Origin: Candidatus Doudnabacteria bacterium
Lineage (GTDB): Bacteria; Patescibacteriota; Doudnabacteria; UBA920; VMFF01
Assembly (NCBI GenBank): GCA_028286905.1
Contig: JAQBQP010000001.1
Location: forward strand, 143,114 to 207,113
DNA: 64,000 nucleotides
Direction of reading: 5' to 3'
The notes beneath the pieces were generated by a model, which did not search any database, was not told where the DNA came from, and saw only the letters and a program-made list of their open reading frames with translations. The position numbers were made by a program, and so were the translations under genes. Positions 11,127 through 53,742 of the stretch are shown piece by piece (positions within the stretch are counted from its first letter, which is position 1; each line of letters opens with the position of its first letter).

Positions 11127-11197
11127 ATCTAGATTATAAAAGAAAACGAGACCCCTTGATAGAGGCCCCGCGGTTTTCTTTGGCTTTCGCCCTCCTT

Positions 11198-11383
11198 CTA
11201 CAGCTGACTTATCCGATCTTCGTCGAGTTCGGTTTCAGACTCGGCGCCTTCACCTTGCTCGATTCCGTGCGGTGGCTCCGAGACCTGTGGAGCGTTGCTG
11301 GATCGGTTATGCACCGTTCCAAGGTCGATAATGTTCGTTCCCGGCATGCTCTTCCAACGCTGGTCCTCCCCGATCCTGTCCAT
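11198..11383 (-). CDS. hypothetical small acidic protein (61 aa) in a GC-rich islet
   Basis: An ATG preceded by AGGAG at 6-nt spacing gives MDRIGEDQRW...ETELDEDRISQL. The longer 81-aa track ORF would start at a TTG with no SD. Coding status is uncertain. Confidence 0.25.
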   Translation of the reverse strand: MDRIGEDQRWKSMPGTNIIDLGTVHNRSSNAPQVSEPPHGIEQGEGAESETELDEDRISQL

Positions 11384-11457
11384 GACCCACTCCTGTTGAA
11401 TCCTGTTGTATTTTACGTCCGTTGCGTTATGCCAGTCAAACAAGTAATATTTAATAT

Positions 11458-13437
11458 ATGTTTAATTTGGAATCAAAATTCAAACCTAGCGGCGATCAGC
11501 CAACGGCAATCAAAGCTTTGATAAAATCGATTAAAAATGGCAACCGCGATCAGACGCTTTTAGGCGTGACCGGATCTGGAAAAACCTTTACGATGGCGAA
11601 TATTATCCAGGAGGTACAACGTCCAACTTTAATTATTTCTCATAATAAAACTTTAGCAGCGCAGCTGGCTTCAGAGTTTCAAGAATTTTTCCCGAACAAC
11701 GCCGTGCATTACTTTGTTTCTTATTACGATTACTACCAACCAGAAGCTTATATTCCCCGCAGTGATACTTATATAGAGAAGGAAACTCAGATCAACGAAG
11801 AAATTGATCGTTTGAGGAACGCCGCTACACAAAGCCTACTAACTCGAAAGGATGTAATTATTGTCGCTTCGGTCTCTTGTATCTACGGGTTAGGCAGCCC
11901 CGAAGATTACGAAAAACTTTCTTTAACTATAAAAAAGGGTGAGAAGTTTAAACGCGACGGTTTGCTTAGACGTTTAACGGATTTGCAGTTTTCTCGCAAT
12001 GATATCGATTTACATCGCGGAACTTTTAGAGTGCGCGGTGATATTTTAGAAATTGTTTTAGCAGGCGCTGAAGTAATTGTCCGAGTTTCCTTCTTTGGCG
12101 ATGATATCGAAAGAATTTCTGAGCATGATATTTTAACCGGCGAGGACATCAAAGACCTTGATCAAATCAAGATCTTCCCAGCGAAGCATTTCGTAACAAC
12201 ACAGGAAAAGCTTCAAGCGGCCAGCGAAAATATTCGCAACGAAATGATTGAGCAAGTGGCGAAGTTTCAAAAAGAAGGCAAGTTGATTGAAGCACAAAGG
12301 ATTCAACAGCGCACTACTTTTGATTTGGAATTAATGGCTACAACCGGTTTTGTAAATGGAATAGAAAACTATTCTAGGCATTTAGATTTTCGTAGCCCTG
12401 GCGATCCGCCATCAACCTTGATGCACTACTTTCCTGATGATTTCCTAATGTTTATAGATGAATCGCATATGACCATCTCTCAAATCGGTGCGATGTATGA
12501 AGGCGACCGCAGCCGCAAACAAACTTTGATTGACTATGGTTTTAGACTGCCTTCGGCCTTAGATAATCGCCCTTTGAAATTTGCAGAGTTTGAAAAGAAA
12601 GTAAACCAAGTGGTTTATGTTTCAGCTACTCCGTCAAAATTTGAAATTGAAAAATCAAAAGATACTGTCATTGCCGAACAATTAATTCGCCCAACAGGAT
12701 TATTGGATCCGGTTATTGAGATCAAGCCAATTAAAAACCAGATTGATGATTTAATAGAAGAAGTTCGCAAAAGAGTAAGTGTGCACCAACGTGTTTTGGT
12801 AACTACTTTAACTAAAAGAATGTCTGAAGAGCTTACTGAATACATGAAGGAGCTCGGAATCAAGGTCCAGTATTTACACTCCGAAGTAGAAACCTTTGAA
12901 CGTTTAGAAATTTTGCGCGATTTACGTCTTGGAATTTTTGATGTGATTGTTGGAATTAACTTACTGCGCGAAGGATTAGATTTACCGGAAGTTTCCTTAA
13001 TTGCAATTCTAGATGCCGACAAAGAAGGCTTCTTGCGGAGCGAAACTTCGTTGATGCAAATCATCGGACGCGCCGCTCGACACGTTGAAGGAAGAGTAAT
13101 TATGTATGCCGATAAAATTACCCGTTCAATGAAAGCTGCGATCGATGAAACTGAGCGCAGAAGAAAAATCCAAACTGCGTACAATAAAAAGCATGGCATT
13201 ACTCCGCAGACAATTATAAAAGCAATTCGCGAAAGCCGCTTAGCAGGTAGCAAAATTATTGAAGAAGAAATTGATCCAGCTGATGTGCGGCATATGGATA
13301 AGCAAGAGTTGCGTTATTATACCGACGAACTTGAAGAACAAATGGACTTGGCAGCAAGAAATATGGAATTTGAAAAAGCGGCAAAGATTCGAGACAGGAT
13401 TTCAGAAATTAGAAAGATTAAGAAGCTCCGCACCTAG
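11458..13437 (+). CDS. uvrB: excinuclease ABC subunit B
   Basis: [10 protein letters not shown] Walker A, helicase motifs and a C-terminal UvrB/UvrC interaction helix. A TTGCGT-17-TAATAT-7-ATG arrangement suggests a leaderless start. Confidence 0.95.
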
Positions 13438-13522
13438 GCTTGATTTAATGCACCAAACATGGTAAATTATTGCTATCCCGTTTTATCCTCTAAATAAAAC
13501 AATTAATTTATAAGCAAGCTAA

Positions 13523-13780
13523 ATGCCAAATACAAAGAGCGCCGCTAAAGCCATGAGGCAGTCAGCGCGCAAGCGTGAGTTCAATCTAAAAGTTAAAGAT
13601 GCAGTGAAGCGAAGCGTTAAGGAAGTACGTAAGCTAATCAAGGAAGGCAAGAAGACTGAAGCCGCTGAAGCAATGAAGCGCGCAATGGCCGCCCTAGATA
13701 AAGCTGCTAAGAAAGGTGTTGTTCATAAGAACCATGCCTCCCGTAAGAAATCCAGACTTGCAAAATCTTTAGCTAAATAA
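13523..13780 (+). CDS. rpsT: 30S ribosomal protein S20
   Basis: MPNTKSAAKAMRQSARKRE... is a typical S20. Confidence 0.85.
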   Translation: MPNTKSAAKAMRQSARKREFNLKVKDAVKRSVKEVRKLIKEGKKTEAAEAMKRAMAALDKAAKKGVVHKNHASRKKSRLAKSLAK

Positions 13781-13792
13781 TCATCAAAAAAG

Positions 13793-13826
13793 CCAATAAA
13801 TCCCCTGTTTTAGGGGATTTTTTGTT
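13793..13826 (+). terminator. intrinsic terminator (aatcccctgttttaggggatttttt)
   Basis: Hairpin plus T-run after rpsT. Confidence 0.6.
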
Positions 13827-13956
13827 ACATAACCACTATCGTCAGCTCCTTGACTTTTAGACGTATTTATGATACTATGGTGGATACCTAATTTTAAGGT
13901 ATTCCACGCGTCGCAAGGCGCTTAGCACGTTCACAATGTCTGGGAGGACTACACAG

Positions 13957-15132
13957 ATGTTTAAGATTCGACCCAACACTCGCGTTCGCGCGGCTATTGC
14001 CATCCTGGCATTAGCCCCAGTCTTGACAGCATGCAACAGCGAGGGTGTCACCGGTGTCAGCGCCAACCCGCCGACCTACCCCGGACCCGCCGGACCGACG
14101 ATCCCTAAGAAGACCTGCTCCGACGATCCGACCACAGGACAGCCCTGCATCAACGGCTATCCCTGGAGCAGCGTCGGCGCGATCGACCTGCCAAACGCGG
14201 TAACCGCGATGCTGGTCACCCCCGATGACAAGACCGCCTACGTCGGCGAGGGCAACCTCGTTCAACAGTATGCGGTTTTGACGGACAGCCTTCCGGCCGT
14301 TCGCCTCCAGGCTGTCGGCTCTCCGATCGGGATCGCCAGCAATGGGCGGCAATTCACGCTCTGCAACGGCCAGATCACCGCTCCGTACGGCACCAGCGGC
14401 ATCAGCATGATCGACCCTGCAACACAGACGTCGATCACTCTGCCGACGCTGACCAACAACAAGATCAGCAGCCTATCGTGCTCTCCAGGGAATTCAATCC
14501 TGGTGATAACCGATACGAACGGCGCAGTGCTCCGGTACAACTACGCAACAAAGACGACGCTTCCGATTATTCGCGACACAACGCGAATGGGAGTGCCTGC
14601 CTTCGCCGCGCAGAACCCATCCGGCACCGCTTTCATCGCTGCGAACTTCTCGGAGCGATACCAGAGCGGACAAATCGGGGTAAACTCGCCGATGCTGATC
14701 AGCCTCACGAACAGCAACACCAACGGAGTGTACTTCCCATCAAGCGGCGCGGCACTGCCAATCAACGGCGTGACGTACGGCAGCTGGGCCGCGACCATCT
14801 CCGAAGACAAAAACCTTCGTGTGTATGATGCGGTGCTTCCCAACGGCCAGTTTCCGGAACACTGCATGATGCCGCTTCCGGGGATACCTACCACCGTGAC
14901 AGCCGCCGACAACAGCAACCTCCTCGCAGTCGGCGTCCCGTTTAGCGCCACCGGCAATAAGGTGATCATCTATCGCGCCAACCCTGGCCGCCAGGCAGGC
15001 TGCGACAAGATCTTCGAGGCCGACAATTCCGTCGCGAACTCGCCGATCAAGGCGCTGCACTTCAGCGCTTCTGGTGCACACCTCTTTGTCGCCAGCGGCA
15101 ATCGAATCATCGTACTGGTCGCGAACAAGTAA
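13957..15132 (+). CDS. putative secreted lipoprotein (GC-rich islet), probable beta-propeller/repeat protein
   Basis: GGGAGGA SD 8 nt upstream of ATG 13957. MFKIRPNTRVRAAIAILALAPVLTAC is a signal peptide with an LTAC lipobox. About 62% GC against a roughly 38% background. The track ORF starts at 13936. Confidence 0.5.
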   Translation: MFKIRPNTRVRAAIAILALAPVLTACNSEGVTGVSANPPTYPGPAGPTIPKKTCSDDPTTGQPCINGYPWSSVGAIDLPNAVTAMLVTPDDKTAYVGEGNLVQQYAVLTDSLPAVRLQAVGSPIGIASNGRQFTLCNGQITAPYGTSGISMIDPATQTSITLPTLTNNKISSLSCSPGNSILVITDTNGAVLRYNYATKTTLPIIRDTTRMGVPAFAAQNPSGTAFIAANFSERYQSGQIGVNSPMLISLTNSNTNGVYFPSSGAALPINGVTYGSWAATISEDKNLRVYDAVLPNGQFPEHCMMPLPGIPTTVTAADNSNLLAVGVPFSATGNKVIIYRANPGRQAGCDKIFEADNSVANSPIKALHFSASGAHLFVASGNRIIVLVANK

Positions 15133-15164
15133 GTTCGCACTACGAACGAACATCTGAAAACAAA

Positions 15165-15215
15165 CGAGCTCTCTTGGTTAACGCATTCCGCGTTATCCTC
15201 GAGAGCTCCTTTTTT
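15165..15215. terminator. bidirectional terminator (gagctctc...gagagctc plus T-run)
   Basis: Hairpin between the convergent lipoprotein gene and polA. Confidence 0.5.
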
Positions 15216-15231
15216 TATTTTTAAATTTTAT

Positions 15232-25450: not shown

Positions 25451-25596
25451 CGAAAATTTAAACTATTAAATAAAAAAGACCCACCTGGGGTCCTGCCGAG
25501 GTAGTAATTTCTTATCCGCTGCTCACGGGCTGCAAATTCGCAGCGCCTAAGAAATTCTACACTCGTCACCCCTCGGTGGGTCTTTTGATATCTAGC

Positions 25597-25884
25597 TTAA
25601 ATTTCGCAAACGATTCTGTAGACTAATTGTCTGCCTAAGCATGCATTTAAAGCTTCGATCAATCTTTTTTGGTAAAGATTGATTTCATAAGCAAGCTCTC
25701 TCGTTAAACTGGCAATCTTTAAAACTCCTTTTTCAAATGCTAAAGCCATGGTTTTTTGCGCGGCATTTGGCATAAATTCCGAAATTACTTTTTCCCAGAT
25801 CGATAACAGCTGATACTGCTTAACTTTCTCGTCAATCTTATATTTCTTTATTGTGGAATTTAAAGTTTTATTGATTTTCTGCAT
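25597..25884 (-). CDS. DUF721-like small protein downstream of recF
   Basis: 95 aa. Positional and weak sequence resemblance to DUF721 proteins found after recF. Confidence 0.35.
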   Translation of the reverse strand: MQKINKTLNSTIKKYKIDEKVKQYQLLSIWEKVISEFMPNAAQKTMALAFEKGVLKIASLTRELAYEINLYQKRLIEALNACLGRQLVYRIVCEI

Positions 25885-25899
25885 ATTTATTTTGTTATT

Positions 25900-26976
25900 T
25901 TATTGGTTAACAAGCTGCTTTAGATTAACATGTTGAGCTTCCATTTCAATTGGCACGGTACTAGTGATAAAGGTTTGGAAGCGGCCTTTTAAATATTTTA
26001 GTAGGAAAACTCGACGATCTTCGTCCAATTCCGACAGCACATCGTCCAGCAGAAGTATCGGATGGTCATCACCATTCTTCAAGTATTCTAATTCTAGAAT
26101 TTTTAGCGACAATACTTGAGATCTTAGCTCTCCTCGAGAGGAAAACGGCGCAAGGTACAAACCCTCGCTCTTCAAGGTAAAGTCGTCTCTATGAGGTCCT
26201 ATTAGCGAACTAGCGCTATATATTTCACGCTGTTGATTATCAAATAGTAACTTTTTAAAGTTTGCTAGCGTTTCAATCTTTCCTTGACCGGGAATACTTT
26301 GGTATTCCACCTCGATTGGCCGAGCAAATCCGGATACTGCCGCATAAACTTCAGAGATCGCTTGATTCAGGTAATTTGTATATTCTCTACGGGCTTCAAT
26401 AATCTCTGTTCCAAACAGCGCCATTTGTTCGTTCCAGCTATGTAGTTCGTTCGGGGAGGACTTACCATTTCGAATATTTGCGAGCAGTTGATTTTTTTGA
26501 GTAACAATCTTTTTATAGTTATAAAGATTTTCTAAATAATCTGAACTCTTTTGAGACAGCAACACGTTTAGATATCTGCGGCGTTCTTCTGGAGATTTGT
26601 TCAACAGATCGACATGAGTCGGATCAAATATTACTGCGGCAATATAACTTTCTAATTGCTTTTTAGTTTTTCGAACACCGTCTAATCGGAAGTTCGCAAA
26701 AATCTTACCTCGGTTTTCTAAAAATATTTCGATCGTGTGCTCTCGGCCTTCTTTTTCAATTGTCGCTTTGATTTCCAAATTAAAGGCGCCCTTCAAAAAC
26801 AGATAGTTAGACGCGTCTCTAAATGATTTAAACAAAGAGAGGAAATAGATTGATTCAAGCAGGTTCGTCTTGCCTGTGGCGTTCGGTCCATGGAAGACAA
26901 TTACATCGCTATTGAAGTCCAAATTTAAATCCTGGTGGTTACGAAAATTCTTTAAACTGATGTTCTTTACTTTCAT
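25900..26976 (-). CDS. recF: DNA replication and repair protein RecF
   Basis: GPNATGKTNLLESI Walker A, SMC-like signature. dnaA-dnaN-recF synteny. Confidence 0.9.
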   Translation of the reverse strand: MKVKNISLKNFRNHQDLNLDFNSDVIVFHGPNATGKTNLLESIYFLSLFKSFRDASNYLFLKGAFNLEIKATIEKEGREHTIEIFLENRGKIFANFRLDGVRKTKKQLESYIAAVIFDPTHVDLLNKSPEERRRYLNVLLSQKSSDYLENLYNYKKIVTQKNQLLANIRNGKSSPNELHSWNEQMALFGTEIIEARREYTNYLNQAISEVYAAVSGFARPIEVEYQSIPGQGKIETLANFKKLLFDNQQREIYSASSLIGPHRDDFTLKSEGLYLAPFSSRGELRSQVLSLKILELEYLKNGDDHPILLLDDVLSELDEDRRVFLLKYLKGRFQTFITSTVPIEMEAQHVNLKQLVNQ

Positions 26977-26985
26977 TTTTCTCCT

Positions 26986-28080
26986 TTAGATCTTTATCGG
27001 CATAACCAGATAAACATATCCCGGCAGGTCTCGACTCATTAATAGCGCGGGAGAATTTTCATTAATGATTTGGAAGGTTACATTCTTAGTACCAATTGTA
27101 GACAAGCAGTCCAGGATGTATCGGTGGTTGAAAATAATTTTTCCGGACTGACCGGTTACCTTACAAGGAATATTCAACTTACTTTCTCCAAGATCTCCAG
27201 AAGACGAACTGATTGTCAGCTTATCAGGCTCTTCAAACTCCAAAGTTACATTGTTTCCAGTCTGGGTAAAAATTCCAGCGGTACGCATTGCAGTACTTAA
27301 TTGATCTGCAGCCAAATCTATTTCTGTATTAAAGGTTTGCGGTACAATCTGTTTGTAATCTGGGTATTGTCCATCAATTAAACGTGAGGTTAGTTCTGTT
27401 TCTTCGGTCTTAAACATTATTTGGTTTTGACTAAAGAAAATCTGAGCAACATCACTGTCGCCATTTCCCAATATTTTTGCTAGCTCTTGCACGGCTTTGT
27501 TTGGAATAATCAAACTTTTAACGACTGAGTTTTTTATAGTTAAAGCTTTTTCTGCTAATCGATACCGGTCGGTAGCCGCCATCTTTAACAAACCTTCTTC
27601 GAAATTAAACAGTATTCCCGAGATTTCTGGCTGAGTTTCACTGTAAGCTGCTGCAAATGCTGTCTGGCTTATAGCGGTTTTAAGCTCTTTGCTTTTTACC
27701 TCAATTGGATTCTGTTCTTCGATTTGCGGGATCAAAGGAAATTCATCTGGAGCCAAACCCTTAATCTTTGTTTGATAATTACTAGTTTCAATTAACAAAT
27801 GATTGTTTTCAGTTGTTAAAGTAACATTGTCATTTGGTAGATTATTTATTAGATCTACAAATGTTTTTGCTGGTACAGAAATTCCACCCTGTTCGTCTAC
27901 CTTACATCTAATCCAAGTATTAACGCCCATTTCTAAATTAGTTGATGAAAGTTTTAATCCACCTTGGTCGGTCTTAATTAAGACATTATTTAAAACTGGT
28001 AAGGTTGTACTTCCATTAGAAACTCTGGATGTTATTCCTAAACCTCGTTTTAAGTTTTCCTGTGTGCAGATTACTTTCAT
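26986..28080 (-). CDS. dnaN: DNA polymerase III beta sliding clamp
   Basis: 364 aa in three-domain clamp layout, immediately downstream of dnaA. Confidence 0.9.
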   Translation of the reverse strand: MKVICTQENLKRGLGITSRVSNGSTTLPVLNNVLIKTDQGGLKLSSTNLEMGVNTWIRCKVDEQGGISVPAKTFVDLINNLPNDNVTLTTENNHLLIETSNYQTKIKGLAPDEFPLIPQIEEQNPIEVKSKELKTAISQTAFAAAYSETQPEISGILFNFEEGLLKMAATDRYRLAEKALTIKNSVVKSLIIPNKAVQELAKILGNGDSDVAQIFFSQNQIMFKTEETELTSRLIDGQYPDYKQIVPQTFNTEIDLAADQLSTAMRTAGIFTQTGNNVTLEFEEPDKLTISSSSGDLGESKLNIPCKVTGQSGKIIFNHRYILDCLSTIGTKNVTFQIINENSPALLMSRDLPGYVYLVMPIKI

Positions 28081-28345
28081 ATTATATTATGTTATTAAAC
28101 TTTAAATATTTAATAGTAGTAGTAAGTGTTGTTAATTTAGTGGATTACTTTCTTTGTTCTGCCAGGTGCTCATTTTTTACGCTTTTTTGTTTGCGCTGTA
28201 AGGGGATATCTGTGTGTACAAGCTGCGTTCATTTTTCAATTTTTTTACTTCCCGCTTAGGCATCGAATGCTTGTCCCCCAGTTATGAACAAGTTAGCGTT
28301 TTATAAACGTGCAACCTTCACTACTCTACCAGCAACTTACCAACA
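28081..28345. promoter_or_regulatory. candidate oriC segment (dnaA-dnaN spacer): AT-rich DUE-like stretch 28081-28135 and DnaA-box-like 9-mers
   Basis: TTATGAACA at 28282-28290. tagtggatta at 28136-28146. Shares ttgtcccc and ttagcgtttt motifs with the dnaA-upstream spacer. Confidence 0.4.
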
Positions 28346-29689: not shown

Positions 29690-29920
29690 ATTCAGATTGT
29701 CCCCAATTTCAAAAAGTTTTTATTTACTTAGCTATTCTAACAAGTAGTTATCAACATGTAAAATTAGCGTTTTTGTTGTAAAAACTTCATCAAGTCTTCA
29801 TAAATGTTCATATAGTGTTCATAACTTGAGGACATCTTTTTGCAGCAATTTTACTGCTTGCCAAAAGCTTACTTTTAAGGTACAATCTGAAAGTAATTTT
29901 GAGTATTTAATTTTAAATCA
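29690..29920. promoter_or_regulatory. candidate oriC segment / dnaA promoter region (dnaA-rpmH spacer)
   Basis: DnaA-box-like TTATCAACA (29748-29756), TGTTCATAT (29806-29814) and TGTTCATAA (29816-29824, the reverse complement of TTATGAACA). AT-rich stretch 29880-29920. Confidence 0.4.
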
Positions 29921-30061
29921 ATGAAACGAACGTATCAGCCAAAAGTAAAAAAGCGCGCTCGAAGACACGGTTTTAGAAAGCGCATGCAGACCAAGAGTGG
30001 TCGCAATGTTTTGGCCTCCAGAAGAGCGAAGGGTCGAAAGAAATTAACAGTAGCTGGCTAG
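29921..30061 (+). CDS. rpmH: 50S ribosomal protein L34
   Basis: [46 protein letters not shown]. Below the ORF-track length cutoff. Confidence 0.85.
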
Positions 30062-30065
30062 CTAA

Positions 30066-30398: not shown

Positions 30399-30468
30399 CA
30401 TAAAAACGATCAATTTTTGGCTAATATAAGCCAATTAAATAAACTAATAGCATTAAAAGCAAATTAAA

Positions 30469-31170: not shown

Positions 31171-31173
31171 TTT

Positions 31174-36720: not shown

Positions 36721-36772
36721 TACTTCAATTGTAAGACATGCAAGTTCATGGAGGACTAACTGGGAGGTTGGA

Positions 36773-36952
36773 ATGTACGAACAGTCCAGGTCGACCAGTT
36801 TGCCGGAGATCGTTTATTTCACCGATCAAGAGGTTCCGGGCCCCCAGATAATGGTGGTGGCAACAGCGTTCGTGTTCGTATATCGCCATCCAAGCCCGCT
36901 CGAGGTCGAGGATATCGTTCCTGAGGTTTGGGAGCGTCAGCCGATCCAGTAG
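36773..36952 (+). CDS. hypothetical 59-aa protein in a GC-rich islet
   Basis: GGGAGG SD 5 nt before ATG gives MYEQSRSTSLPEIVYFTDQEVPGPQIMVVATAFVFVYRHPSPLEVEDIVPEVWERQPIQ. Stop followed directly by hairpin ccccgcgttttcttttggaaacgcgggg. Below the track cutoff. A competing 94-aa minus-strand ORF overlaps ruvC. Confidence 0.25.
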   Translation: MYEQSRSTSLPEIVYFTDQEVPGPQIMVVATAFVFVYRHPSPLEVEDIVPEVWERQPIQ

Positions 36953-36995
36953 CAACACCCCGCGTTTTCTTTTGGAAACGCGGGGTGGATCATTT

Positions 36996-40607: not shown

Positions 40608-40683
40608 TGGTGGGCACGCCAGGACTCGAACCTGGGACCAGTTGTGTATAAGACAACCGCTCTACCAACTGAGCTACGTGCCC
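40608..40683 (-). tRNA. tRNA with anticodon UAU (Ile, AUA decoder), CCA encoded
   Basis: Hand-folded cloverleaf GGGCACG/CGUGCCC acceptor, D arm GCUC...GAGC, anticodon arm GUUGU-CUUAUAC-ACAAC, T arm CCAGG-UUCGAGU-CCUGG. Confidence 0.7.
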
Positions 40684-40813
40684 TCGTCGCACCCGCCAGA
40701 CATCTTTCTCAGCTCTGCTTCGCAGAGCTTCTAATATGTCTGGCGGGTGCTCCTCTTAAAACTGCCTATCCTCCCTTCGGTCAGACACACGGCAGTTTTG
40801 CTACGCAAGGTTT

Positions 40814-44781: not shown

Positions 44782-44848
44782 GTCCTTATTTTAACAAAAA
44801 ACGAGCTAATTTGGAAGGCTTAAAAAGCCTATAAAACTAAACGGACTC

Positions 44849-45424
44849 TTATTCAGAGTCCGTTCGGGTTAAAGGTTCGAGATCAATACCACAGAGCGTA
44901 CAATAGCCTTCGTACTGAAGAAAAATTGCGCGCGGGTGACCAGCTCGGCACTCGATCATTCGATGGTGTGCCAGGCTCCTGCCGTTCAGCGCCAAGAAGA
45001 CTTTGTGTGCGAAATGCGCGTTCTTTTCACCGCAGCATTCGCAGAATCGGCAATCGGCTTGGACCTGCTCACCGCACGAAGGCTCTTCGCACAAGGTGGT
45101 TTGTCCATACTGCCCGAGAGCGTAGAGGTGTCCCCTCAATGTATCGTGATTAGGCGCGTTCGCGGTGTCGCCAGCCGCTTGCTCAAGCTCTTGGATTTTT
45201 TTCTCAACGAAGGCATTTGATTTTTTCAGCCGGCTAGCAATAACCGCTGATTCAATCCCTTCAGAATGCATTCGAAGAATAAGAAAATCTTCGGCTGGAA
45301 TTGTTCGCGCCAGTTCCCAGCACTTTCGACTGAGTTCCTGGAAGAGCATCTCAATCTCATCATCGAGAAGAGAGTCCTGGTCGTCCTCATTGTTCTCCTC
45401 GGGTTCGGGGTCTATCCAAGTCAT
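44849..45424 (-). CDS. sigma-70 region-4-like HTH + zinc-ribbon protein, paralogue 1 (GC-rich islet)
   Basis: Start MTWIDPEPEE overlaps the upstream stop as ATGA. Sigma4-like FLILRMHSEGIESAVIASRL. C-terminal CxxCG...CxxCG, GHP, GYCxLCG. The stop is embedded in a terminator hairpin. Confidence 0.5.
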   Translation of the reverse strand: MTWIDPEPEENNEDDQDSLLDDEIEMLFQELSRKCWELARTIPAEDFLILRMHSEGIESAVIASRLKKSNAFVEKKIQELEQAAGDTANAPNHDTLRGHLYALGQYGQTTLCEEPSCGEQVQADCRFCECCGEKNAHFAHKVFLALNGRSLAHHRMIECRAGHPRAIFLQYEGYCTLCGIDLEPLTRTDSE

Positions 45425-46077
45425 AATTCCTCGTCGTTTTCGAATTGCCCAAGGATCGGCGCGAGATCTGTGCCGCACAGATTGCAATACCCGACGCACC
45501 GATACTTAATCGCTATTGGGTGGCCAACATGGCATTCACCAGCGCACTCTTCTTCATATGAGTTGCCTCGTACTTGAAGAAAGATCCGAGCGTCGAACTC
45601 GCTATTTGGCTTACCGCACTGGACGCAGTACTTAAGGTCTTCGTGCTGGAAAAAGCCGCAATTTGAACAGCGAGTTTGATAGCCGTATTCAGCTAAGGCA
45701 TGCATTGCTTCATCAAGGTTTGGCACCCAACGCAGCAGGTGTACAGTGGCAATGCGTTCTGCCGAGGCGCGAACCCCGGCAATTTCCTCAGGCGTAATAC
45801 TCAGCCTGTTTGCAATTTGATCTTCCGACAGAAATGTCAGTAGCCGAAGGATCAAAAACGCGTCTTCTCTAAGCAAGGCTGCCGCTGCAGCCGCTCGCTC
45901 CCGTACAATCTGCTCGTTCTTTTCTGCGCGCTTGAATTTCTCGAATGTTTGGGGTTGTCCAGGTTCTGCCCCTGTCGACTCGTCTGACTTGAAGATTTTG
46001 AACGAATCTGAGTGTATTCCCTCGGGGTTCCAGGCGTTGTCGTCTGAATTTTCCCAAGGATCTCTTTCCTTTTTCAT
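45421..46077 (-). CDS. sigma-70 region-4-like HTH + zinc-ribbon protein, paralogue 2 (GC-rich islet)
   Basis: GGAGG SD 4 nt before MKKERDPW. Acidic N-terminus. Sigma4-like LREDAFLILRLLTFLSEDQIANRLSITPEEIAGVRASAERI. C-terminal CSNCG...CVQCG, ECAGECHVGHP, GYCNLCG. Confidence 0.5.
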   Translation of the reverse strand: MKKERDPWENSDDNAWNPEGIHSDSFKIFKSDESTGAEPGQPQTFEKFKRAEKNEQIVRERAAAAAALLREDAFLILRLLTFLSEDQIANRLSITPEEIAGVRASAERIATVHLLRWVPNLDEAMHALAEYGYQTRCSNCGFFQHEDLKYCVQCGKPNSEFDARIFLQVRGNSYEEECAGECHVGHPIAIKYRCVGYCNLCGTDLAPILGQFENDEEL

Positions 46078-46125
46078 ACATCCTCCGGGAAGTTGGTTGA
46101 ATCTAGTATACATCCATTAAAACCT

Positions 46126-46155
46126 CTTGCCAAAGACCCTGCCTTCGCCTATACT
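46126..46155 (-). promoter_or_regulatory. sigma70-type promoter for the paralogue pair (minus strand TTGGCA-17-TATACT)
   Basis: Seen in sequence in the AT-rich flank upstream of paralogue 2. Confidence 0.4.
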
Positions 46156-46296: not shown

Positions 46297-47490
46297 ATGG
46301 CAGATATCCAAACAATGAACGATTTACTCCAAAGCGGAGTTGAAATCAAAGTATTAAAGCCTGGTGACATGATTGCCGGCAAGATTCTAACAGTAGGTAA
46401 AAATGAAGTTTATGTAGATATTGAAGGTTACGGCATTGGTGTGGTTCGTGGTCGTGAATTATACGATGATGAAGCTACCCTATCGAACTTAAAAGCTGGT
46501 GCTGAAGTTTACGCTTCAGTAGTGGAAACTGAAAACAAAGATGGCAATATTGAATTGTCATTCAGACAAGCTGGTCAGGAAAGAGTATGGACCACTCTTC
46601 AAGATAAATTGACTACTAAAGAAGTTATTAGAACAAAGATCTTGGAAGCAAACAAAGGTGGTTTGATGGTAGAGATTAACAATGTTGTTGGCTTCTTGCC
46701 AGTATCTCAACTTGCTACCGAACACTACCCTCGCGTAGAAGACGGCGACAAGAACAAGATTCTTTCAGTATTGAACAGCTATGTTGGTACAATGTTTGAT
46801 GTTCAAATTATCACAGCTGATCAACAAGAAGAAAAGTTGATCGTTTCTGAAAAAGCGGTTTTTGAAAAAGAATTGCAAGACAGAATCAGCAAACTTAAAA
46901 TTGGTGATACAGTTACCGGAACAGTTTCAGGTATCGTCGACTTCGGTGTGTTTGTGAAGTTTGGTGAACTTGAAGGTTTGGTACACATTTCTGAATTGGC
47001 TTGGCAAAGAATCGAACACCCAAAAGATATTGTAAAAGTTGGTCAAGAAGTTAAATGTATCGTAATTGGTTTGGACAAAGGTAGAATTTCTTTGTCGATG
47101 AAGCAATTAGAAAAAGATCCATGGCAGGATTCAGTAAAGAAATATCAAATTGGTCAGGTTGTTAAAGGTAAAGTTTCTAAGGTAATGCCATTCGGCGTAT
47201 TCGTAGAACTTGATGATCAAATTCAAGGCCTTGCTCATTTGATGGAACTTTCCCACGACGAAGTTAAAAATCCAGAAGATATCTTAAAAGTTGGTGACAA
47301 AAAAGAATTTAAAATTATCTCAATTGAACCGCAAGAGCATAGATTAGGACTGTCTATTAAAGCGCTTCATGAAAAGCCAGCTGCCAAAGAAGATAAAGCA
47401 GCGGACAAAGACGCAGAAGTTAAAGAAGAAATGAAAGAAGAGCAGGCGGAAGTAGAAGAAGAAAAAATGGAAGAGTCAAAGCCTGAATAA
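46297..47490 (+). CDS. rpsA: 30S ribosomal protein S1 (four S1 domains)
   Basis: Repeated S1 OB-fold motifs (G..V.G.V..I..FG.FV) and an acidic C-terminus. Confidence 0.85.
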   Translation: MADIQTMNDLLQSGVEIKVLKPGDMIAGKILTVGKNEVYVDIEGYGIGVVRGRELYDDEATLSNLKAGAEVYASVVETENKDGNIELSFRQAGQERVWTTLQDKLTTKEVIRTKILEANKGGLMVEINNVVGFLPVSQLATEHYPRVEDGDKNKILSVLNSYVGTMFDVQIITADQQEEKLIVSEKAVFEKELQDRISKLKIGDTVTGTVSGIVDFGVFVKFGELEGLVHISELAWQRIEHPKDIVKVGQEVKCIVIGLDKGRISLSMKQLEKDPWQDSVKKYQIGQVVKGKVSKVMPFGVFVELDDQIQGLAHLMELSHDEVKNPEDILKVGDKKEFKIISIEPQEHRLGLSIKALHEKPAAKEDKAADKDAEVKEEMKEEQAEVEEEKMEESKPE

Positions 47491-47528: not shown

Positions 47529-47831
47529 TTATATTTCTAACCCCTGATTGATTTTTAAAAGTTTTTCAAAATTGTCATTCGGAGATGTTTTATTATTTTT
47601 TTCGTAACCACAAATAGTGCATTGGTGTTTGATTACATATTCACCATTTTTAAGAAATACTTGAACTGGTTTCATTAAGCCACCACAGCTACTAGCTCTA
47701 TCTCCGGGGTTAATATCTACGTGCTTGCTGTATAAGCAATTAGGGCAATGGTTGGTATAACCATCTCCTTTTACTAGATTGTTGCAATGCTCGCAAGTGA
47801 AGTTTTCAATTTTTCTGGTGAACTTTTTCAT
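47529..47831 (-). CDS. RNHCP-domain zinc-ribbon protein
   Basis: FTCEHCN...YTNHCPNC...CTICG, matching the RNHCP motif family. Confidence 0.45.
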   Translation of the reverse strand: MKKFTRKIENFTCEHCNNLVKGDGYTNHCPNCLYSKHVDINPGDRASSCGGLMKPVQVFLKNGEYVIKHQCTICGYEKNNKTSPNDNFEKLLKINQGLEI

Positions 47832-47861
47832 TTACAGTAGTTTAGCAAATTTACCATCTAT

Positions 47862-47892
47862 ATAAAAACAAGACCCGCTGACTTTCGCCAGC
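47862..47892. terminator. hairpin terminator (cccgctgactttcgccagcggg with U-rich tails on both strands)
   Basis: Seen in sequence, between the GC-rich gene and the RNHCP gene. Confidence 0.45.
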
Positions 47893-47951
47893 GGGTGCTT
47901 ATTTGTTTTTCCCTATCTTCCTCCGTCAAGATAAGGGAGACAATTTGTTCG

Positions 47952-48980
47952 TTACAGGATTTCGAGTTTTCGAGTGTTCATGTCCACTACCGCCGTGAGA
48001 ACTTCGAGATGTTTGAGCAGATCAGGCGTGTGAGCTTCGATTACGTCCCGTGCGTATGCGCTTAGGAACTTCGTCTTTTCAATTGCCAATTGGCGATCTG
48101 GACCTACCGGCTTGCGGTAAGCTGCGGAGGTCATCAAGACCAAACCATCTGCGCCGTTAACCCTGCCGGAGACGATGTTGTCCTGAAGCAGAATTGCCGC
48201 AGTCTTGATTGGTCCAGTTATGTCCGGTGAGTATGGGCCGACAAGAAAAGCGGCGTTGATCTCGTGTAGCCAATCGAACCCACTGCCGATACCAATCATC
48301 CACTCCTTGTGTTCTACTTCGGAGTTCGGGCGGTTCGATGCACGTATTTCCTTGATGTGCTTGAGGTTTCCTGCCAACAGCGGCAAAAAATCCGTTTGCA
48401 CTTGTTCAGGCATCGATGGGTACAGGCGCTTGATCAGGTCCTTTAATTCTGCGGATGACGCCGTTTCGTTCAGTTCGGACAGGTCGACACGTTCGCCATT
48501 TTCTCCGTGGAGGATTAGTGCATCCAGGTCGGTTTCGATTCCGCAGACAATTGAGGTTACAGCCTGACCTTTGAAGACAGTACTAATCTGTTGCTTCAGG
48601 GTGGCCATCTCCAAAAGTGCGGCGTCGGTGTTATAGTCGAAGCCTCTGCAACCGCGGTGTGCGTCTCCTCTGGAGAAATGGTAGGTTACCAAGACTAAAC
48701 ACGGTCTTGCTCGGCTGATTGCGTAGGATACCCATTCGTTGAGAGTGGTTTGGAAGTGAGCCCAGCCCAAGTTAAACCGACCACCGAGATTTCGGAACGG
48801 TCGGATTATGCCCAACGGAGTTTGTGTGATTATCGGCAAGTGAAGCCTGCCGTCCATGCATTTCAGCACGGCGATTTCCGTTGGATGCTGGCTGCGGTAC
48901 AAACTGCGATCCAGTGCTTGGTTGAGGAAGCTGGTTGAGCTACTTGCATTCAAATCAACGAGGTGTTTTATCCTATTCAA
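47952..48980 (-). CDS. hypothetical protein with beta-carbonic-anhydrase-like zinc-site motifs plus a roughly 140-aa C-terminal extension (GC-rich islet)
   Basis: TTG start with GGAGA SD at 6 nt. CMDGR (CxDxR), FRNLGG about 20 aa later (compare beta-CA VRNAGN), and HRGC (HxxC) about 67 aa after the first Cys. Confidence 0.4.
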   Translation of the reverse strand: MNRIKHLVDLNASSSTSFLNQALDRSLYRSQHPTEIAVLKCMDGRLHLPIITQTPLGIIRPFRNLGGRFNLGWAHFQTTLNEWVSYAISRARPCLVLVTYHFSRGDAHRGCRGFDYNTDAALLEMATLKQQISTVFKGQAVTSIVCGIETDLDALILHGENGERVDLSELNETASSAELKDLIKRLYPSMPEQVQTDFLPLLAGNLKHIKEIRASNRPNSEVEHKEWMIGIGSGFDWLHEINAAFLVGPYSPDITGPIKTAAILLQDNIVSGRVNGADGLVLMTSAAYRKPVGPDRQLAIEKTKFLSAYARDVIEAHTPDLLKHLEVLTAVVDMNTRKLEIL

Positions 48981-49117
48981 AGCTGTTCTCCTTTAGTGAT
49001 CTTATTGTTTCCCTTCTACCCGCGTGGGTAGGAAAATATATTAGCAAAAATATTTAGAATTGAAAAGTTTCAAATAAAATAGCGATCACAAAATGTGCCG
49101 CTATCTAAAAATTAACT

Positions 49118-49372: not shown

Positions 49373-49400
49373 AACTCCTCCGGAATACCGGAGGAGTTTA
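49373..49400 (-). terminator. intrinsic terminator (ctcctccgg...ccggaggag plus U-tract on minus strand)
   Basis: Seen in sequence downstream of the 49404..50012 gene. Confidence 0.55.
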
Positions 49401-49403
49401 AAA

Positions 49404-50012: not shown

Positions 50013-50221
50013 TTTATATGATCAATTCCTTTCTTCCCTAATATTTAGATTAAAGTGTGCAAAAGCCTACAATCAGGCTTTTAAAACCTTTTGCCGAGTT
50101 CTATCTCAGCAGAACCATACTTTATCATACTTAAGACCATTTGTCAAGGAGTTTGTCAAGATGACATTTAGGCCAAAAAATGGTCTAAAAAAGCAAAAAC
50201 CTCAATGAATCAGGTAAAAAT

Positions 50222-50256
50222 TGAAAGAAGCGCTCTACCGTAGGGGGTACGGGAGC
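50222..50256 (-). terminator. GC-rich hairpin terminator (gaagcgctc...gagcgcttc plus U-tract on minus strand)
   Basis: Seen in sequence. Confidence 0.5.
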
Positions 50257-50277
50257 GCTTCTGGGCGGTCGATGCGT

Positions 50278-50868
50278 TCATGCAATTTGCGGTAAGCCAG
50301 CAATGTGAAGGCGACGGAGCTGGGCAATATGTCTCACGATCTTGCCCATTAAGGTGTGGTGGATCCATTCCGGGGTATCCTTCGCGTTTACCAGCAAATA
50401 CCGGCCTTTTGGGTAGCGGGTTTTGCTAGCTACCAGGGCTTGCTCCTCTTTGGCGTAGTGGGCCATCACTTCACGGCCTCCTTTGCCATCGATCAGAAAG
50501 ACCACGGCCATTCCTTGCTCGTTAAGGAATTGAGCGTCCTTTAGGAGCTGGCCACAGCTACTGTCACAGAGGTCCACTATTGCAATAGATTCTGCACCCA
50601 AGCTCCCCTCGGCTACCAGCTCGGCTATGCCGGGGTGAACAGGCAGTGAAGGTTCCTTGCAAACCCTTTGCACAAAGATCGTGGTGAATCTCCCTATGTG
50701 CGGGTCGGTGGGAAGCTTAGCGATATCATCGCTTAGCCTCTTAAGGACTTTCATGTGGGCTCGCGAGGATGGCGATTCGGAGATGATTAGGATGACGCGT
50801 TCGCGGGCGCGCCTTTCTGGGTTCTCTCCACTGCGGGGTGTGATCCGCCGGTCGGAAAGCATCGACAT
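50278..50868 (-). CDS. hypothetical alpha/beta protein (GC-rich islet)
   Basis: GGAGGAG SD 6-7 nt before MSMLSDRR. Alternating hydrophobic strands (RVILIISES, IAIVDLCDSSCG, MAVVFLIDGKGG) suggest a Rossmann/flavodoxin-like fold. Family not recognised. Confidence 0.35.
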   Translation of the reverse strand: MSMLSDRRITPRSGENPERRARERVILIISESPSSRAHMKVLKRLSDDIAKLPTDPHIGRFTTIFVQRVCKEPSLPVHPGIAELVAEGSLGAESIAIVDLCDSSCGQLLKDAQFLNEQGMAVVFLIDGKGGREVMAHYAKEEQALVASKTRYPKGRYLLVNAKDTPEWIHHTLMGKIVRHIAQLRRLHIAGLPQIA

Positions 50869-51041
50869 TTGTAACTCCTCCTGAGAGTTCCATGTATACA
50901 TCGCACGGCAACCCCTAGGTTGCTACTTGCTGCGTGCTGCTTACTACTTACATTAAATACCTTAACAAAAGAAAAGACCTTACGGAAGATCGTCAAGGCC
51001 TTTTTTCGTGGACATGTTATGGATAACCTGTTGGTTAGCTG

Positions 51042-51449: not shown

Positions 51450-51454
51450 GATCT

Positions 51455-52675
51455 TTATTTTATATGTCCGTTGATTGCAGAGTTTCTTTTCTGCACATTT
51501 TCGGACCATTCTTTATTATTTAAATACCATTCAATCGTTTTTGGTAAAGCTTCTTCAAAACGATGTTCAGGATACCAACCAAGGTCATTCATAATCTTTG
51601 TGGCATCAATAGCATATCTACGATCATGGCCTGGTCGATCAGGAACAAATTTGATTGTTGATTCTGGAAGATTAAAGTATTGCAAGATAAGCTTCGCAAT
51701 TTCAAGATTGTTCTTTTCGTTGTTGCCGCCGATATTATAAACTTCACCGGGAATCCCTTTGTGCAGCATTAAATCAATAGCTTTTACGTGATCTAGAACG
51801 AACAACCAATCGCGGATATTCCTGCCATCGCCATAGATTGGGAATGGCTCATTGTTTAAAGCTTTGCCGATTAAGAACGGAATAAGTTTTTCTGGGAACT
51901 GGTAAGGGCCATAATTATTTGAACAATGACTAACTATTACGGGTACTCCAAAGGTTTGGTAATATGCTCGACATAGTAAATCCCCACCGGACTTTGCTGC
52001 GGCATAAGGAACGTTTGGTTCAAAAGCAGTGTTCTCTAAAAACATTCTATGTTCGTTCAATTTTAGAGAACCATAAACTTCATCGGTTGAAATATTTATA
52101 AATTTAAAAAGATTGTGTCGTCTGGTTGCATCTAATAGAGTTTGCACTCCGACAACGTTGGTCATAACGAATTCTCTGGAGCCAACATGAATGCTTCGGT
52201 CAACATGTGTTTCAGCTGCAAAGTTTACGATCGCATCTATTTTTTCAGTAGTAATAACATGTTCAATCATTTGCTGATCGACAATGTCGCCATGGTAGAA
52301 TTTATAGTTGGAAAGATGTTCAATGTCGATCAAATTTTCAAGATTGCCAGCGTAAGTAAGCTTGTCCAAGTTCACTATTTTATAATGCGGGTACTTTGTG
52401 ACCATATGTCGGACAAAATTGCTGCCAATAAAACCCGCGCCACCACAAACCAAAACATTTAGTTGGCGTACGGGCAAACTCATTCCGCGGAGGATCGATG
52501 AAAATATTTCTGCGGATAGTCCAGAAATTTTGATTGCATCGTGAATTTCGATATCACCTTCCTTGTATAAACGGATTGCTAAGCGTGTTCTTTCAGAAGT
52601 GGTCATCTGACTAAGAATTTCTTCGCTATAGGCTTCTGTTCCGGTTTGAGTGTTGTTTGGCTGCCAGTCGGTCAT
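51455..52675 (-). CDS. rfbB: dTDP-glucose 4,6-dehydratase (start uncertain; the core may begin at about 52483)
   Basis: GGAGFIGSNFV Rossmann motif, YAAAKSGGDLL (YxxxK), NNYGPYQFPEKLIP. The roughly 64-aa N-terminal extension in the longest ORF has no SD. Confidence 0.8.
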   Translation of the reverse strand: MTDWQPNNTQTGTEAYSEEILSQMTTSERTRLAIRLYKEGDIEIHDAIKISGLSAEIFSSILRGMSLPVRQLNVLVCGGAGFIGSNFVRHMVTKYPHYKIVNLDKLTYAGNLENLIDIEHLSNYKFYHGDIVDQQMIEHVITTEKIDAIVNFAAETHVDRSIHVGSREFVMTNVVGVQTLLDATRRHNLFKFINISTDEVYGSLKLNEHRMFLENTAFEPNVPYAAAKSGGDLLCRAYYQTFGVPVIVSHCSNNYGPYQFPEKLIPFLIGKALNNEPFPIYGDGRNIRDWLFVLDHVKAIDLMLHKGIPGEVYNIGGNNEKNNLEIAKLILQYFNLPESTIKFVPDRPGHDRRYAIDATKIMNDLGWYPEHRFEEALPKTIEWYLNNKEWSENVQKRNSAINGHIK

Positions 52676-52821
52676 AGGAAAAGTCTTACTTGTTTATGTA
52701 ATAAAGTATCATCAAACGACCTGGTTGGTCAAGATAACGACACCGCTATCAGATACGAAAAGCCCAGAACCGGAGTTCTGGGCAGATCGTTATATTTGTT
52801 GCTGTACTGACGGCACAGGGT

Positions 52822-53543
52822 TCAGGCGTGTGCCAGGATGACCTGCACCTTCTTGATCGCGGCGATGGACAGCGGGCAGACGATCTCGTCGGCCCCGATC
52901 ATCTCGTCGATCTCCTCCTGGGTGAAGAAGTCGACCTTGTAGATCTTCTCCTTCTCGTCAGGGTTCTGCTTGCCGAGCCGGTCTTCGTCGACCCGTGCCA
53001 GGAAGATCGGGGTGTAGCCGCAGATGAAAGTGGTGTTGCCTGCAACGATCTGCCCGATCTTCTCGCAGCTGAGCAGCGGGCCCCCGATCTCCTCACCGCC
53101 TTCACGCATGGCGGTCTCCTTCGTGGTTTCGCCTGCTTCGGCATGCCGCGGGGAACTTCCCAGAGTCCGGTGCCGAACTTGGAGAAGTCGGTTGGTGGGT
53201 AGGAGTAGTCATCCGGGTTCGCCACTGCGGGACGGTCAACCTTGACTAGACCGATACGCTCCTTCGAGTCGACGACCATGGTAATGGCGCCGATGTTCTC
53301 GAAATGCAGAGGCTGGTCCCACAGCGGGGTGCCATCGTCCTTGCAGATGGCGACGTGCACGAGCTGCCCGATCCCCTTCGTGTGCTCGAAGACGATGTCA
53401 GTGTTGGGGTTGGAGTCTTCGGTGCTGTACAAGTACCAGCCACGAAGGGGGCGCTTCTCGCCGTTTCTCTTGGCCTGTTCGTACAAGACGGGAGTGCCGT
53501 AAAAGAACTGGCTTGCTACCTGTGAGAATGGGACGACCTTCAT
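52822..53543 (-). pseudogene. Nudix hydrolase, frame-disrupted within the Nudix box (GC-rich islet)
   Basis: Frame A (from 53543) ends ...FGTGLWEVPRG, then runs into an Arg/Ser-rich stretch that does not look like real coding sequence. The frame shifted by one nucleotide continues ...HAEAGETTKETAMREGGEEIGGPLL..., a perfect Gx5Ex7REUxEExGU Nudix signature. A single-nucleotide frame change near 53140-53155 joins the two frames. Confidence 0.5.
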
Positions 53544-53742
53544 GTGTCAAACCTCGGGTGGAAGTGAAACTGCAAACGCGGGAACAAATATAACTTCAAT
53601 TTAGCCTCCTTTAGACTAAACAATAAATGATAGTACTATTTTTGAGGTTTAAAGTCAAGAAGGTTGATGCTTAATGACGGGGCTGGAAATTTTCTACGAG
53701 GTGTACTATAATACACGAGCATTCTGAAATTGTTCCTGTCCC

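Follow-up and report, generated by a model that had tools for sequence, protein, structure and literature searches.

GC-rich accessory genes between the core genes of a Doudnabacteria chromosome probably keep a base composition of their own

Results

GC-rich segments between the genes of an AT-rich backbone

A 64,000-nt segment of a Candidatus Doudnabacteria chromosome (Patescibacteria/candidate phyla radiation, CPR), which contains dnaA and is referred to hereafter as the window, was analysed for nine short GC-rich segments, or islets (I1 to I9), that lie between its core genes. Two islet proteins were 100% identical to the NCBI entries JWO40_140 and JWO40_172, and the closest relatives of UvrB were found in metagenome-assembled genomes of Doudnabacteria and Patescibacteria. 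The housekeeping backbone comprises rpoB, an ABC transporter, a Mur ligase, FemAB, ruvA, uvrB, rpsT, polA and a type II secretion system (T2SS)-type ATPase, together with a DHH protein, tsaE, ruvB, dciA-recF-dnaN-dnaA, rnpA-yidC-jag, PBP1 and tyrS, and with ruvC, yebC, gyrA, S1, an epimerase, an nrnA-like gene, rbfA and infB. The dnaA region is flanked by islets on either side. A first-pass annotation of the same DNA had placed each islet between conserved core genes. This siting was confirmed, the neighbours being RuvA/UvrB, S20/PolA, TyrRS/RuvC, a metallo-beta-lactamase (MBL)-fold protein/S1, RNHCP/tRNA-Leu and FdtA/epimerase/tRNA cluster.

The GC content was 40.3% for the whole window and 38.9% for the background outside the islets. 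With z computed against background windows of equal length, values were 53.8% for I1 (11150-11450; z 4.1), 57.2% for I2 (13850-15230; z 8.1), 53.9% for I4 (36740-36995; z 3.9), 54.3% for I5 (40684-40810; z 3.0), 49.7% for I6 (44790-46140; z 4.7), 50.5% for I7 (47850-48990; z 4.9), 54.3% for I8 (50210-50950; z 5.8) and 56.9% for I9 (52690-53590; z 7.1). I3 (25465-25592) was the least distinct, at 48.4% (z 1.9), and 3.4% of background windows were equally high. Seven of the nine segments (I1, I2, I4 and I6-I9; z 3.9-8.1) lay above every equal-length background window. The first-pass annotation had estimated about 55-62% GC against 35-40%; the contrast held for these seven, while its size had been overstated for most islets (measured, 48.4-57.2% against 38.9%).

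Codon usage confirmed the contrast. GC at third codon positions (GC3) was 0.51-0.89 in the islet open reading frames (ORFs), as compared with 0.30-0.43 in 50 backbone genes, and exceeded GC at second positions (GC2) in all large islet ORFs. I2, I6, I7, I8 and I9 are protein genes; I1 and I4 are ORFs of ∼60 codons. The best-fitting GC blocks matched the borders of coding sequences to within ∼80 nt, and the DNA 51-100 nt upstream of islet starts had only 16-38% GC. The exception was the I6 pair, in which I6a follows I6b directly and the I6b block forms the upstream margin of the GC-rich block. High GC was limited to the ORF and the terminator stem, and promoters and untranslated regions (UTRs) were AT-rich, like the backbone. 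The core genes adjoining islets showed no GC3 gradient (polA 0.39, MBL 0.37, S1 0.30, epimerase 0.35). The larger genes fell into two compositional classes, I2 and I9 (GC3 0.75-0.89, very rich in C-ending codons) and I6-I8 (0.51-0.61).

Each of the seven gene islets has a Shine-Dalgarno (SD) sequence. A terminator hairpin was present at the end of all seven, and a consensus promoter match in four of them (I1, I2, I6 and I9). The proposal that most islets carry their own promoter and terminator therefore stands for the terminators and only in part for the promoters. No integrase, transposase or reverse transcriptase was present among the ORFs scanned with Pfam (the islet ORFs and 32 backbone ORFs); most window ORFs outside these scans are core genes that are syntenic in relatives. 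No long direct repeats were found in the window, and none of at least 35 nt flanked any islet, in agreement with what had been noticed at first sight. Old repeat scars could have eroded.

The protein-coding islets

The I2 unit (13850-15216, + strand) extends from a promoter-like site (13850-13878) to a terminator inverted repeat (15158-15216) and contains, on the same strand, an ORF of 398 aa (13936-15132; GC 0.60, GC3 0.75) with a putative signal peptide and the candidate lipobox LTAC. Its N-terminus, read from the sequence as ...AILALAPVLTAC-NSEG, agrees with the L-x-x-C lipobox pattern, and the protein gave weak beta-propeller matches. A search of 5.8 billion proteins returned one homologue. 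An orthologue with a GC3 of 0.75 lies beside polA in L081 (contigs of relatives are denoted by L numbers); it is 50% identical, and the flanks are 76-82% identical.

I6 is a bicistronic unit (44839-46133, - strand) with a promoter-like site at 46105-46133 and a terminator at 44839-44865. The upstream cistron, I6b (218 aa, 45421-46077, -), is followed by I6a (191 aa, 44849-45424, -), whose start overlaps the I6b stop (ATGA). The two are paralogues, with two zinc ribbons and a helical domain that may be a LuxR/GerE-like helix-turn-helix (HTH) domain. Zinc-ribbon-type CxxC...CxxC ligand sets are present and were invariant in eight sequences (C149, C152, C163 and C166; C194, H198, C210 and C213); Pfam zinc-ribbon matches were weak, and no Pfam HTH match was obtained. 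An AlphaFold2 (AF2) model had a predicted local distance difference test score (pLDDT) of ∼90 over residues 50-210. Foldseek searches with this model placed EL222, FixJ and GerE on top, with a TM score of ∼0.69 (GerE length) and a root mean square deviation (rmsd) of ∼3 Å, all with E values of at least 0.28. Six relatives carry single-copy orthologues in the gap that separates the MBL-fold gene from S1, with 24-41% identity and a GC3 of 0.54-0.63; their flanks were 71-96% identical. I6 was absent from L087 and L089. A profile search gave eight clusters, and all clusters with a source name were from Doudnabacteria/Patescibacteria.

The I7 unit (47873-48980, - strand; terminator 47873-47896) lies just downstream of tRNA-Cys and tRNA-Leu. 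Its ORF (342 aa, 47952-48980, -) has a TTG start after AAGGAG. The product matched PF20686 (25.1 bits, cut-off 21.5; E 1.4e-05) and the PDB entry 2FGY (4e-05), and scored 27 bits against the full-length CsoSCA equivalog TIGR02701, far under the cut-off of 241. It is thus predicted to be a relative of the CsoSCA/beta-carbonic anhydrase (beta-CA) domain and not a carboxysome CsoSCA. Candidate zinc-ligand motifs, KCMDGR and HRGC (compare C-x-D-x-R and H-x-x-C), can be read in the translation. Orthologues occupy the same place in L082 (75% identity, GC3 0.56) and L083 (68%, GC3 0.65), and the family is widespread in Nitrosomonas/Nitrosospira, in DPANN and in several CPR phyla. The insertion point of the unit, both in L082 and in the window, is precisely the junction of tRNA-Leu and the RNHCP gene. 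In relatives without I7, the RNHCP gene begins a few nt past the 3' end of tRNA-Leu(UAA) (window 47800-47831 vs L117:11420-11470) and is presumably co-transcribed with the tRNAs. Alignment of the I7 locus to the empty sites of L117 and L085 revealed no duplicated tRNA segment.

The same tRNA-Cys/tRNA-Leu locus holds a LAGLIDADG homing-endonuclease ORF in L166 (L166:4472-5125), which is AT-rich (GC3 0.31). ARAGORN placed the tRNA-Cys of L166 at 4418-4493, overlapping the 3' end of this ORF. Elsewhere, a CsoSCA-domain gene of the I7 family, with backbone-like GC, lies right after the F1Fo ATP-synthase operon, in another Doudnabacteria genome (L164:6001-7089) and in an Uhrbacteria genome (L165:6001-7080). 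This position hints that the CsoSCA-domain protein may be functionally linked with ATP synthase in CPR bacteria.

I8 (50226-50901, - strand) consists of an ORF of 207 aa (50278-50901) and a terminator hairpin (50226-50262). Translation is likely to start at Met12 (50868), which follows AGGAAGAA. A single-sequence AF2 model of poor quality (pLDDT 54) suggested an alpha/beta protein. The corresponding gap encodes weakly similar proteins in L082 and L167 (∼26% identity, with the N-terminus in common; GC3 0.58-0.59), and a different protein in L083.

The I9 unit (52762-53658, - strand) has a promoter-like site at 53630-53658 and a terminator at 52762-52783. It contains a Nudix hydrolase gene (52822-53543, -) whose frame is broken within the Nudix box, where 1 nt is missing at ∼53133-53138. 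With one G restored, the frame encodes 240 aa with a GC3 of 0.83, matches PF00293 with 33.8 bits (cut-off 21.1; NUDIX 3.9e-08) and displays the Nudix box G-x5-E-x7-REGGEEIGG. The deletion is possibly a sequencing error. Intact orthologues lie beside the epimerase gene in L167 (243 aa, 51% identity vs 85% for the epimerase; GC3 0.75) and L166 (240 aa, 40% vs 78%; GC3 0.73). A search of 1.84 billion representatives with the N-terminal half of I9 gave 60 matches, headed by these two syntenic copies. Upstream lies an ORF of 19 codons (53540-53599, -), with a TTG start 6 nt after a strong SD sequence (AAAGGAGG) and a TGA that overlaps the Nudix ATG (ATGA). The overlap, together with the lack of an SD at the Nudix ATG, suggests that translation of the two may be coupled.

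Small ORFs and hairpins

I1 is a small accessory transcription unit (11146-11439, - strand), with a promoter-like site at 11410-11439, a 61-codon ORF (11198-11383, -; SD AGGAG) and a terminator hairpin at 11146-11171. In L001, the closest relative, the RuvA/UvrB gap that holds I1 is occupied by another small ORF, also GC-rich but different, and a terminator. I4 (36773-36985, + strand) contains a 59-codon ORF (36773-36952; SD GGGAGG) and a terminator hairpin (36958-36985); the ORF showed no significant similarity to that in the equivalent gap of L082.

The remaining two segments are GC-rich RNA hairpins. I3 is a GC-rich extended hairpin of 113 nt (25474-25586, no strand assigned) between a convergent bPH-domain gene and dciA, with an A-run on one side and a T-run on the other. 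Its stem is far longer than those of other terminators in the window (minimum free energy, MFE, -58 and -67.6 kcal/mol; z -7.6 and -8.8 vs shuffles). The same site holds an ordinary short terminator in a distant relative (L007), and we read I3 as an elaborated bidirectional terminator and not as a gene islet. I5 (40689-40799, - strand) consists of two hairpins (40758-40799 and 40689-40750; MFE -66.1, z -8.9 vs shuffles) between a haloacid dehalogenase (HAD)-hydrolase gene and tRNA-Ile(UAU). It is read in the same way as a probable terminator followed by a tRNA-leader stem. I3 and the first I5 hairpin both have the GC-rich stem, U-tract and gene-end position of intrinsic terminators. The two-hairpin layout of I5 recurs at L082:11017-11156, where the linker AAGAGGAG is common to both and the stem sequence differs. 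Conservation of the structure without its stem sequence suggests that it functions as a tRNA leader or a terminator. The element is missing from L083, where just 27 nt separate the HAD-hydrolase gene from tRNA-Ile. This tRNA-Ile (window 40608-40683, -) has the anticodon UAU rather than being of the usual lysidine-modified CAU type, and it is kept at the same place in L082, L083, L086 and L117.

GC-rich intergenic DNA in AT-rich genomes usually represents structured RNA. The very stable hairpins of I3 and I5, the structure that I5 shares with L082, and the shortness of I1 and I4, which lack protein homologues, would fit an explanation of the GC-rich segments as structured non-coding RNAs. This explanation is nevertheless very improbable. 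I2, I6, I7 and I9 have conserved protein homologues in the called frame, the excess of GC3 over GC2 holds in all large ORFs, and I1 and I4 have canonical SD-ATG geometry. Rfam returned only tRNAs at the gathering score, and at E values up to 1 only chance-level matches on the small islets, none of them credible. The cargo first proposed for the islets was thus largely upheld (a putative lipoprotein, a probable HTH/zinc-ribbon pair, a beta-CA-like protein, an alpha/beta protein at low confidence and a broken Nudix gene), with the exception of I3 and I5, which are hairpins.

GC-rich genes occupy the same gaps in related genomes

Gene order was kept across related contigs from unrelated projects. 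GC-rich genes were found in the RuvA/UvrB gap of L001 and L006, in the UvrB/S20 gap of L002, L005 and L006, beside polA in L081, and beside the epimerase gene in L166 and L167. Among L082-L086 and L117, the MBL/S1, tRNA-Leu/RNHCP and p202/FdtA gaps held such genes in some contigs and not in others. In tblastn and blastn searches of the islets against the first 80 loci, no homologues were found around uvrB, indicating that the same gaps hold non-homologous GC-rich DNA. Neither I7 nor I8 was present in L085, L086 or L117, and L083, L085 and L117 lacked I9; the enlarged gap of L086 at the place of I9 gave no I9 match. Islet orthologues were 24-75% identical, as compared with 63-96% for the flanking proteins, I7 being the exception to this faster-than-neighbour divergence. 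In more distant relatives (S1 identity of at most 78%), the backbone had 39-56% GC, mostly above 43%, and enlarged gaps were not GC-rich. Presence or absence across the subclades of one low-GC Doudnabacteria clade, at the same gaps in independent assemblies, bears out the suggestion of a lineage-specific accessory layer.

An assembly or binning chimera, in which foreign GC-rich fragments were wrongly joined into an AT-rich contig, had been named as the null explanation. The compositional contrast itself is the one observation in its favour. The same pattern is seen in at least 10 contigs from unrelated projects and assemblers, the orthologues diverge in concert with their flanks, and the islets carry AT-rich promoters, SDs and terminators of the native type. 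A chimera is therefore rejected as extremely improbable.

L006:1625-4211 (JAKCAE010000037.1) contains a complete diversity-generating retroelement (DGR) in the RuvA/UvrB gap, with a reverse transcriptase (RVT_1 5e-24) and bAvd (8.6e-17). Its template repeat (TR, 3047-3170) and variable repeat (VR, 3484-3607) are 86% identical, and every mismatch is at a TR adenine. The VR forms the C-terminus of a GC-rich 246-aa ORF with a GC3 of 0.73, as against 0.33 for the reverse transcriptase and 0.31 for Avd. A GC-rich target gene beside AT-rich reverse transcriptase and Avd genes indicates that high GC follows the class of gene, and not the block of DNA.

High GC persists through synonymous turnover

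The age of the islet genes was assessed at four-fold degenerate sites, taken at conserved residues. Four-fold identity of most backbone orthologues was 0.30-0.43, as compared with 0.26-0.28 expected at random; for I7 it was 0.26-0.27 (0.26 expected), and for I2, 0.43 (0.31 expected). The near-saturated pairs correspond to roughly 1.2-2.2 substitutions per site. GC at these sites (GC4) was nevertheless similar across orthologues, at 0.73/0.75 for I2 and 0.49-0.62 for I7, as against 0.34-0.46 in typical backbone genes. Under a two-state model, turnover of this extent reduces an imported GC excess to about a quarter, and the I2 and I9 values would thus be impossible without a maintaining force. 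The same high GC despite near-full synonymous turnover indicates a maintained, gene-specific equilibrium, and not the fading mark of an import.

The I6 genes allowed the direction of change to be determined. In the close pair L085/L117, polarised by L086, I6 had undergone 17 GC-to-AT and 29 AT-to-GC changes, and the backbone 187 and 259. Decay to backbone composition predicts a GC-to-AT share of 0.56, which differs from that observed in I6 (binomial P 0.007). A second polarised test, of the uvrB/rpsT islet, was dropped because L002, L005 and L006 are too divergent. I6 identity was 87% between L085 and L117 (MBL, 95%), 52% in pairs with L086 (MBL, 90-91%) and 24-37% between clades. This identity matrix mirrors the backbone groupings, which supports vertical descent.

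The observations above bear on whether the islets were acquired horizontally, recently and independently of one another, from a high-GC donor or several such donors, and have yet to ameliorate. Such an origin would account for the strongly atypical codon usage, the presence or absence of islets among relatives, the I7 homologues in Nitrosomonas and many CPR/DPANN lineages, the dinucleotide signatures, which are most deviant in I2 and I9, and the broken state of I9, as new imports often are broken. However, syntenic orthologues have unchanged GC4 at near-saturated synonymous divergence, I6 divergence tracks the backbone without an excess of GC-to-AT changes, and the search of 5.8 billion proteins gave no homologue of I2 or I6 from beyond the clade. 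The closest I9 relatives are syntenic Doudnabacteria copies, the UTRs and promoters are AT-rich, and neither mobility genes among the scanned ORFs nor long repeats were found. Multiple acquisitions from a high-GC donor, which the first-pass annotation had offered as one of its simplest readings, are thus not supported as a recent process, and we consider this explanation decidedly unlikely.

Repeated allelic replacement from a co-diversifying GC-rich reservoir (a host bacterium, phage or plasmid) would place young copies at an old locus, and would jointly account for the constant GC, the shared position and the high divergence. Uptake of foreign DNA is believed to occur in CPR bacteria. Horizontal gene transfer (HGT) into Patescibacteria is widely reported (PMC12455944). 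Against such replacement, I2 and I6 copies were found only on Doudnabacteria-type contigs, and the I6 divergence between L085 and L117 (12%, vs 8-12% for the backbone) is that predicted by vertical descent. I2, I6b and I8 had no tblastn match in 50,697 phage records and none in PHROGs, leaving a phage origin unsupported. More generally, PADLOC and PHROGs gave no matches for islet proteins, and NCBIfam gave only the weak CsoSCA match. Replacement from such a reservoir is quite improbable.

A regional cause was also considered. If the islets were recombination hot spots, frequent strain swaps with biased mismatch repair could raise their GC content by gene conversion. This would be consistent with a GC equilibrium kept without decay, with fast divergence and presence/absence of a kind that fits diversifying selection, and with the occupation of the L006 islet by a DGR target gene. 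There are proposals that GC-biased conversion operates in bacteria, and some AT-rich genomes are known to contain GC-rich loci for antigenic variation. Sharp GC steps at ORF borders, without a gradient in the adjacent core genes polA, MBL, S1 and epimerase, fit poorly with any regional force, be it biased conversion or local mutation bias. In addition, a GC3 of up to 0.75-0.89 as against 0.35 is far above what the effects reported for bacteria would lead one to expect. Conversion at hot spots is unlikely as the cause.

Relaxed constraint or fast evolution alone was rejected as the cause of high GC, as poorly conserved genes of other kinds are AT-rich: p267 (UPF0259), with a GC3 of 0.32, shares only 36% identity with the corresponding L083 protein, and GC3 is 0.33-0.34 for FemAB and Mur-ligase homologues of 50-58% identity. 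Other accessory insertions in relatives are likewise AT-rich.

The origin region and S1

The origin neighbourhood (window 25597-31659) contains dciA, recF, dnaN and dnaA on the - strand, and rnpA, yidC and jag/khpB on the + strand. The 376-bp gap between dnaA and rnpA (29690-30065) is the likely oriC; cumulative GC skew showed no clean switch there. The S1 gene (46297-47490, +) has the lowest four-fold-site GC in the window (0.19-0.20), indicating that presumed highly expressed genes favour codons ending in A or U and are thus at the far end of the range from the islet genes.

Discussion

We conclude, with a probability of roughly 0.65, that the islets are an old, vertically inherited and fast-evolving accessory layer, subject to gain and loss, at a GC equilibrium of its own that is limited to the ORFs. 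Foreign or novel ORFs would have been inserted into intergenic gaps at different times and inherited vertically after entry, and a force that acts on the coding sequence would hold their GC-rich codon usage. Most likely, this force is selection that keeps the islet gene class in a separate codon/mRNA regime, which is our leading inference; GC-biased repair or conversion is less likely.

Several observations weigh against this conclusion. The spread of the I7 family implies that I7 at least arrived by transfer at some time. The two compositional classes make more than one history possible, and a single cause may not fit all islets. The dinucleotide signatures of I2 and I9 are at or past the background maximum, as those of foreign DNA would be, and at ∼1 kb are too noisy to assign a donor. 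The polarised I6 test draws on 46 changes, counted over all three codon positions, with 30 more unpolarisable; the argument from saturation takes the four-fold sites of the backbone as a measure of local mutational equilibrium, and the islet four-fold site counts are small (18-123 sites). Finally, the coding status of I1 and I4, which have no detectable homologues, rests on SD and ORF geometry.

The cargo of the islets suggests functions in interaction or regulation, and not in housekeeping. A bolder interpretation, which we consider possible but doubtful, is that the genome has two compartments, in which clade-specific, fast-evolving interaction and regulation genes are actively held at a GC3 of 0.5-0.9 and the backbone at ∼0.35. 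The force would be ORF-specific, such as a separate codon/tRNA-dependent translation regime or targeted GC-biased repair or conversion. Composition would then mark a functional gene class and not a foreign origin, and the usual amelioration clock would not apply.

It is routine to take atypical GC as a sign of recent horizontal transfer and as a criterion for cleaning metagenome-assembled genomes. HGT detectors that rely on composition would assign islet genes a wrong age, bin-cleaning tools could wrongly remove them from CPR genomes, and the amelioration model fails to describe the Doudnabacteria lineage studied here. The GC-rich class comprises the small number of genes by which these ultra-small genomes, syntenic in other respects, differ from one another. 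In this uncultured group of symbionts its members, including the putative surface lipoprotein, the predicted HTH/zinc-ribbon regulators, the small proteins and the L006 DGR target, are obvious candidates for a role in host interaction. Literature searches retrieved general reports of HGT in Patescibacteria and no description of a GC-rich islet pattern.

The islets share features with several known systems. Like genomic islands, they have atypical GC and codon usage, core-gene neighbours, patchy presence and accessory or unknown cargo, and I7 abuts the 3' end of a tRNA. Compositional deviation and sporadic distribution, both typical of islands, were thus observed; mobility genes, flanking or tRNA repeats and amelioration were not. 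Unlike islands, the islets consist of one or two genes (0.3-1.4 kb), their composition does not decay over saturating divergence, and the deviation ends at ORF borders. The islets are also GC-richer than the host genome, in contrast to most accessory DNA, which tends to be AT-richer.

I2, I6 and I8 (and I1 and I4) resemble ORFan genes in having no or almost no homologues outside the clade and in diverging several-fold faster than their neighbours. Orphan genes are usually compositionally unremarkable or AT-rich. In contrast, the islets form a discrete GC-rich class, and p267, the L166 LAGLIDADG gene and the extra insertions of L086 are AT-rich.

Target genes of DGRs are common in CPR genomes. 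The GC-rich gene of L006 is such a target, and islet genes resemble fast-diversifying interaction proteins. DGR mutagenesis acts on ∼100 nt, however, and gives no account of gene-wide high GC. We rejected DGRs as an explanation of the islets in the window, as no reverse transcriptase or Avd was present among the scanned ORFs and no TR/VR repeat in the window; a TR elsewhere in the genome is possible.

GC-rich antigenic-variation loci such as Borrelia vls offer a parallel for local high GC in fast-varying surface or interaction genes of a low-GC genome. Unlike vls, the islets have no silent cassette arrays, repeats or signs of segmental conversion, and their cargo includes cytoplasmic enzymes and regulators. 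Integron cassettes are similar in that single ORFs are each followed by an imperfect palindrome and the cargo is heterogeneous. They differ from the islets in their integrase, array and attC-type ends; the islet palindromes are T-tailed terminators, and islets have promoters of their own. In comparison with these systems, the islets are accessory genes of atypical composition that fail to ameliorate.

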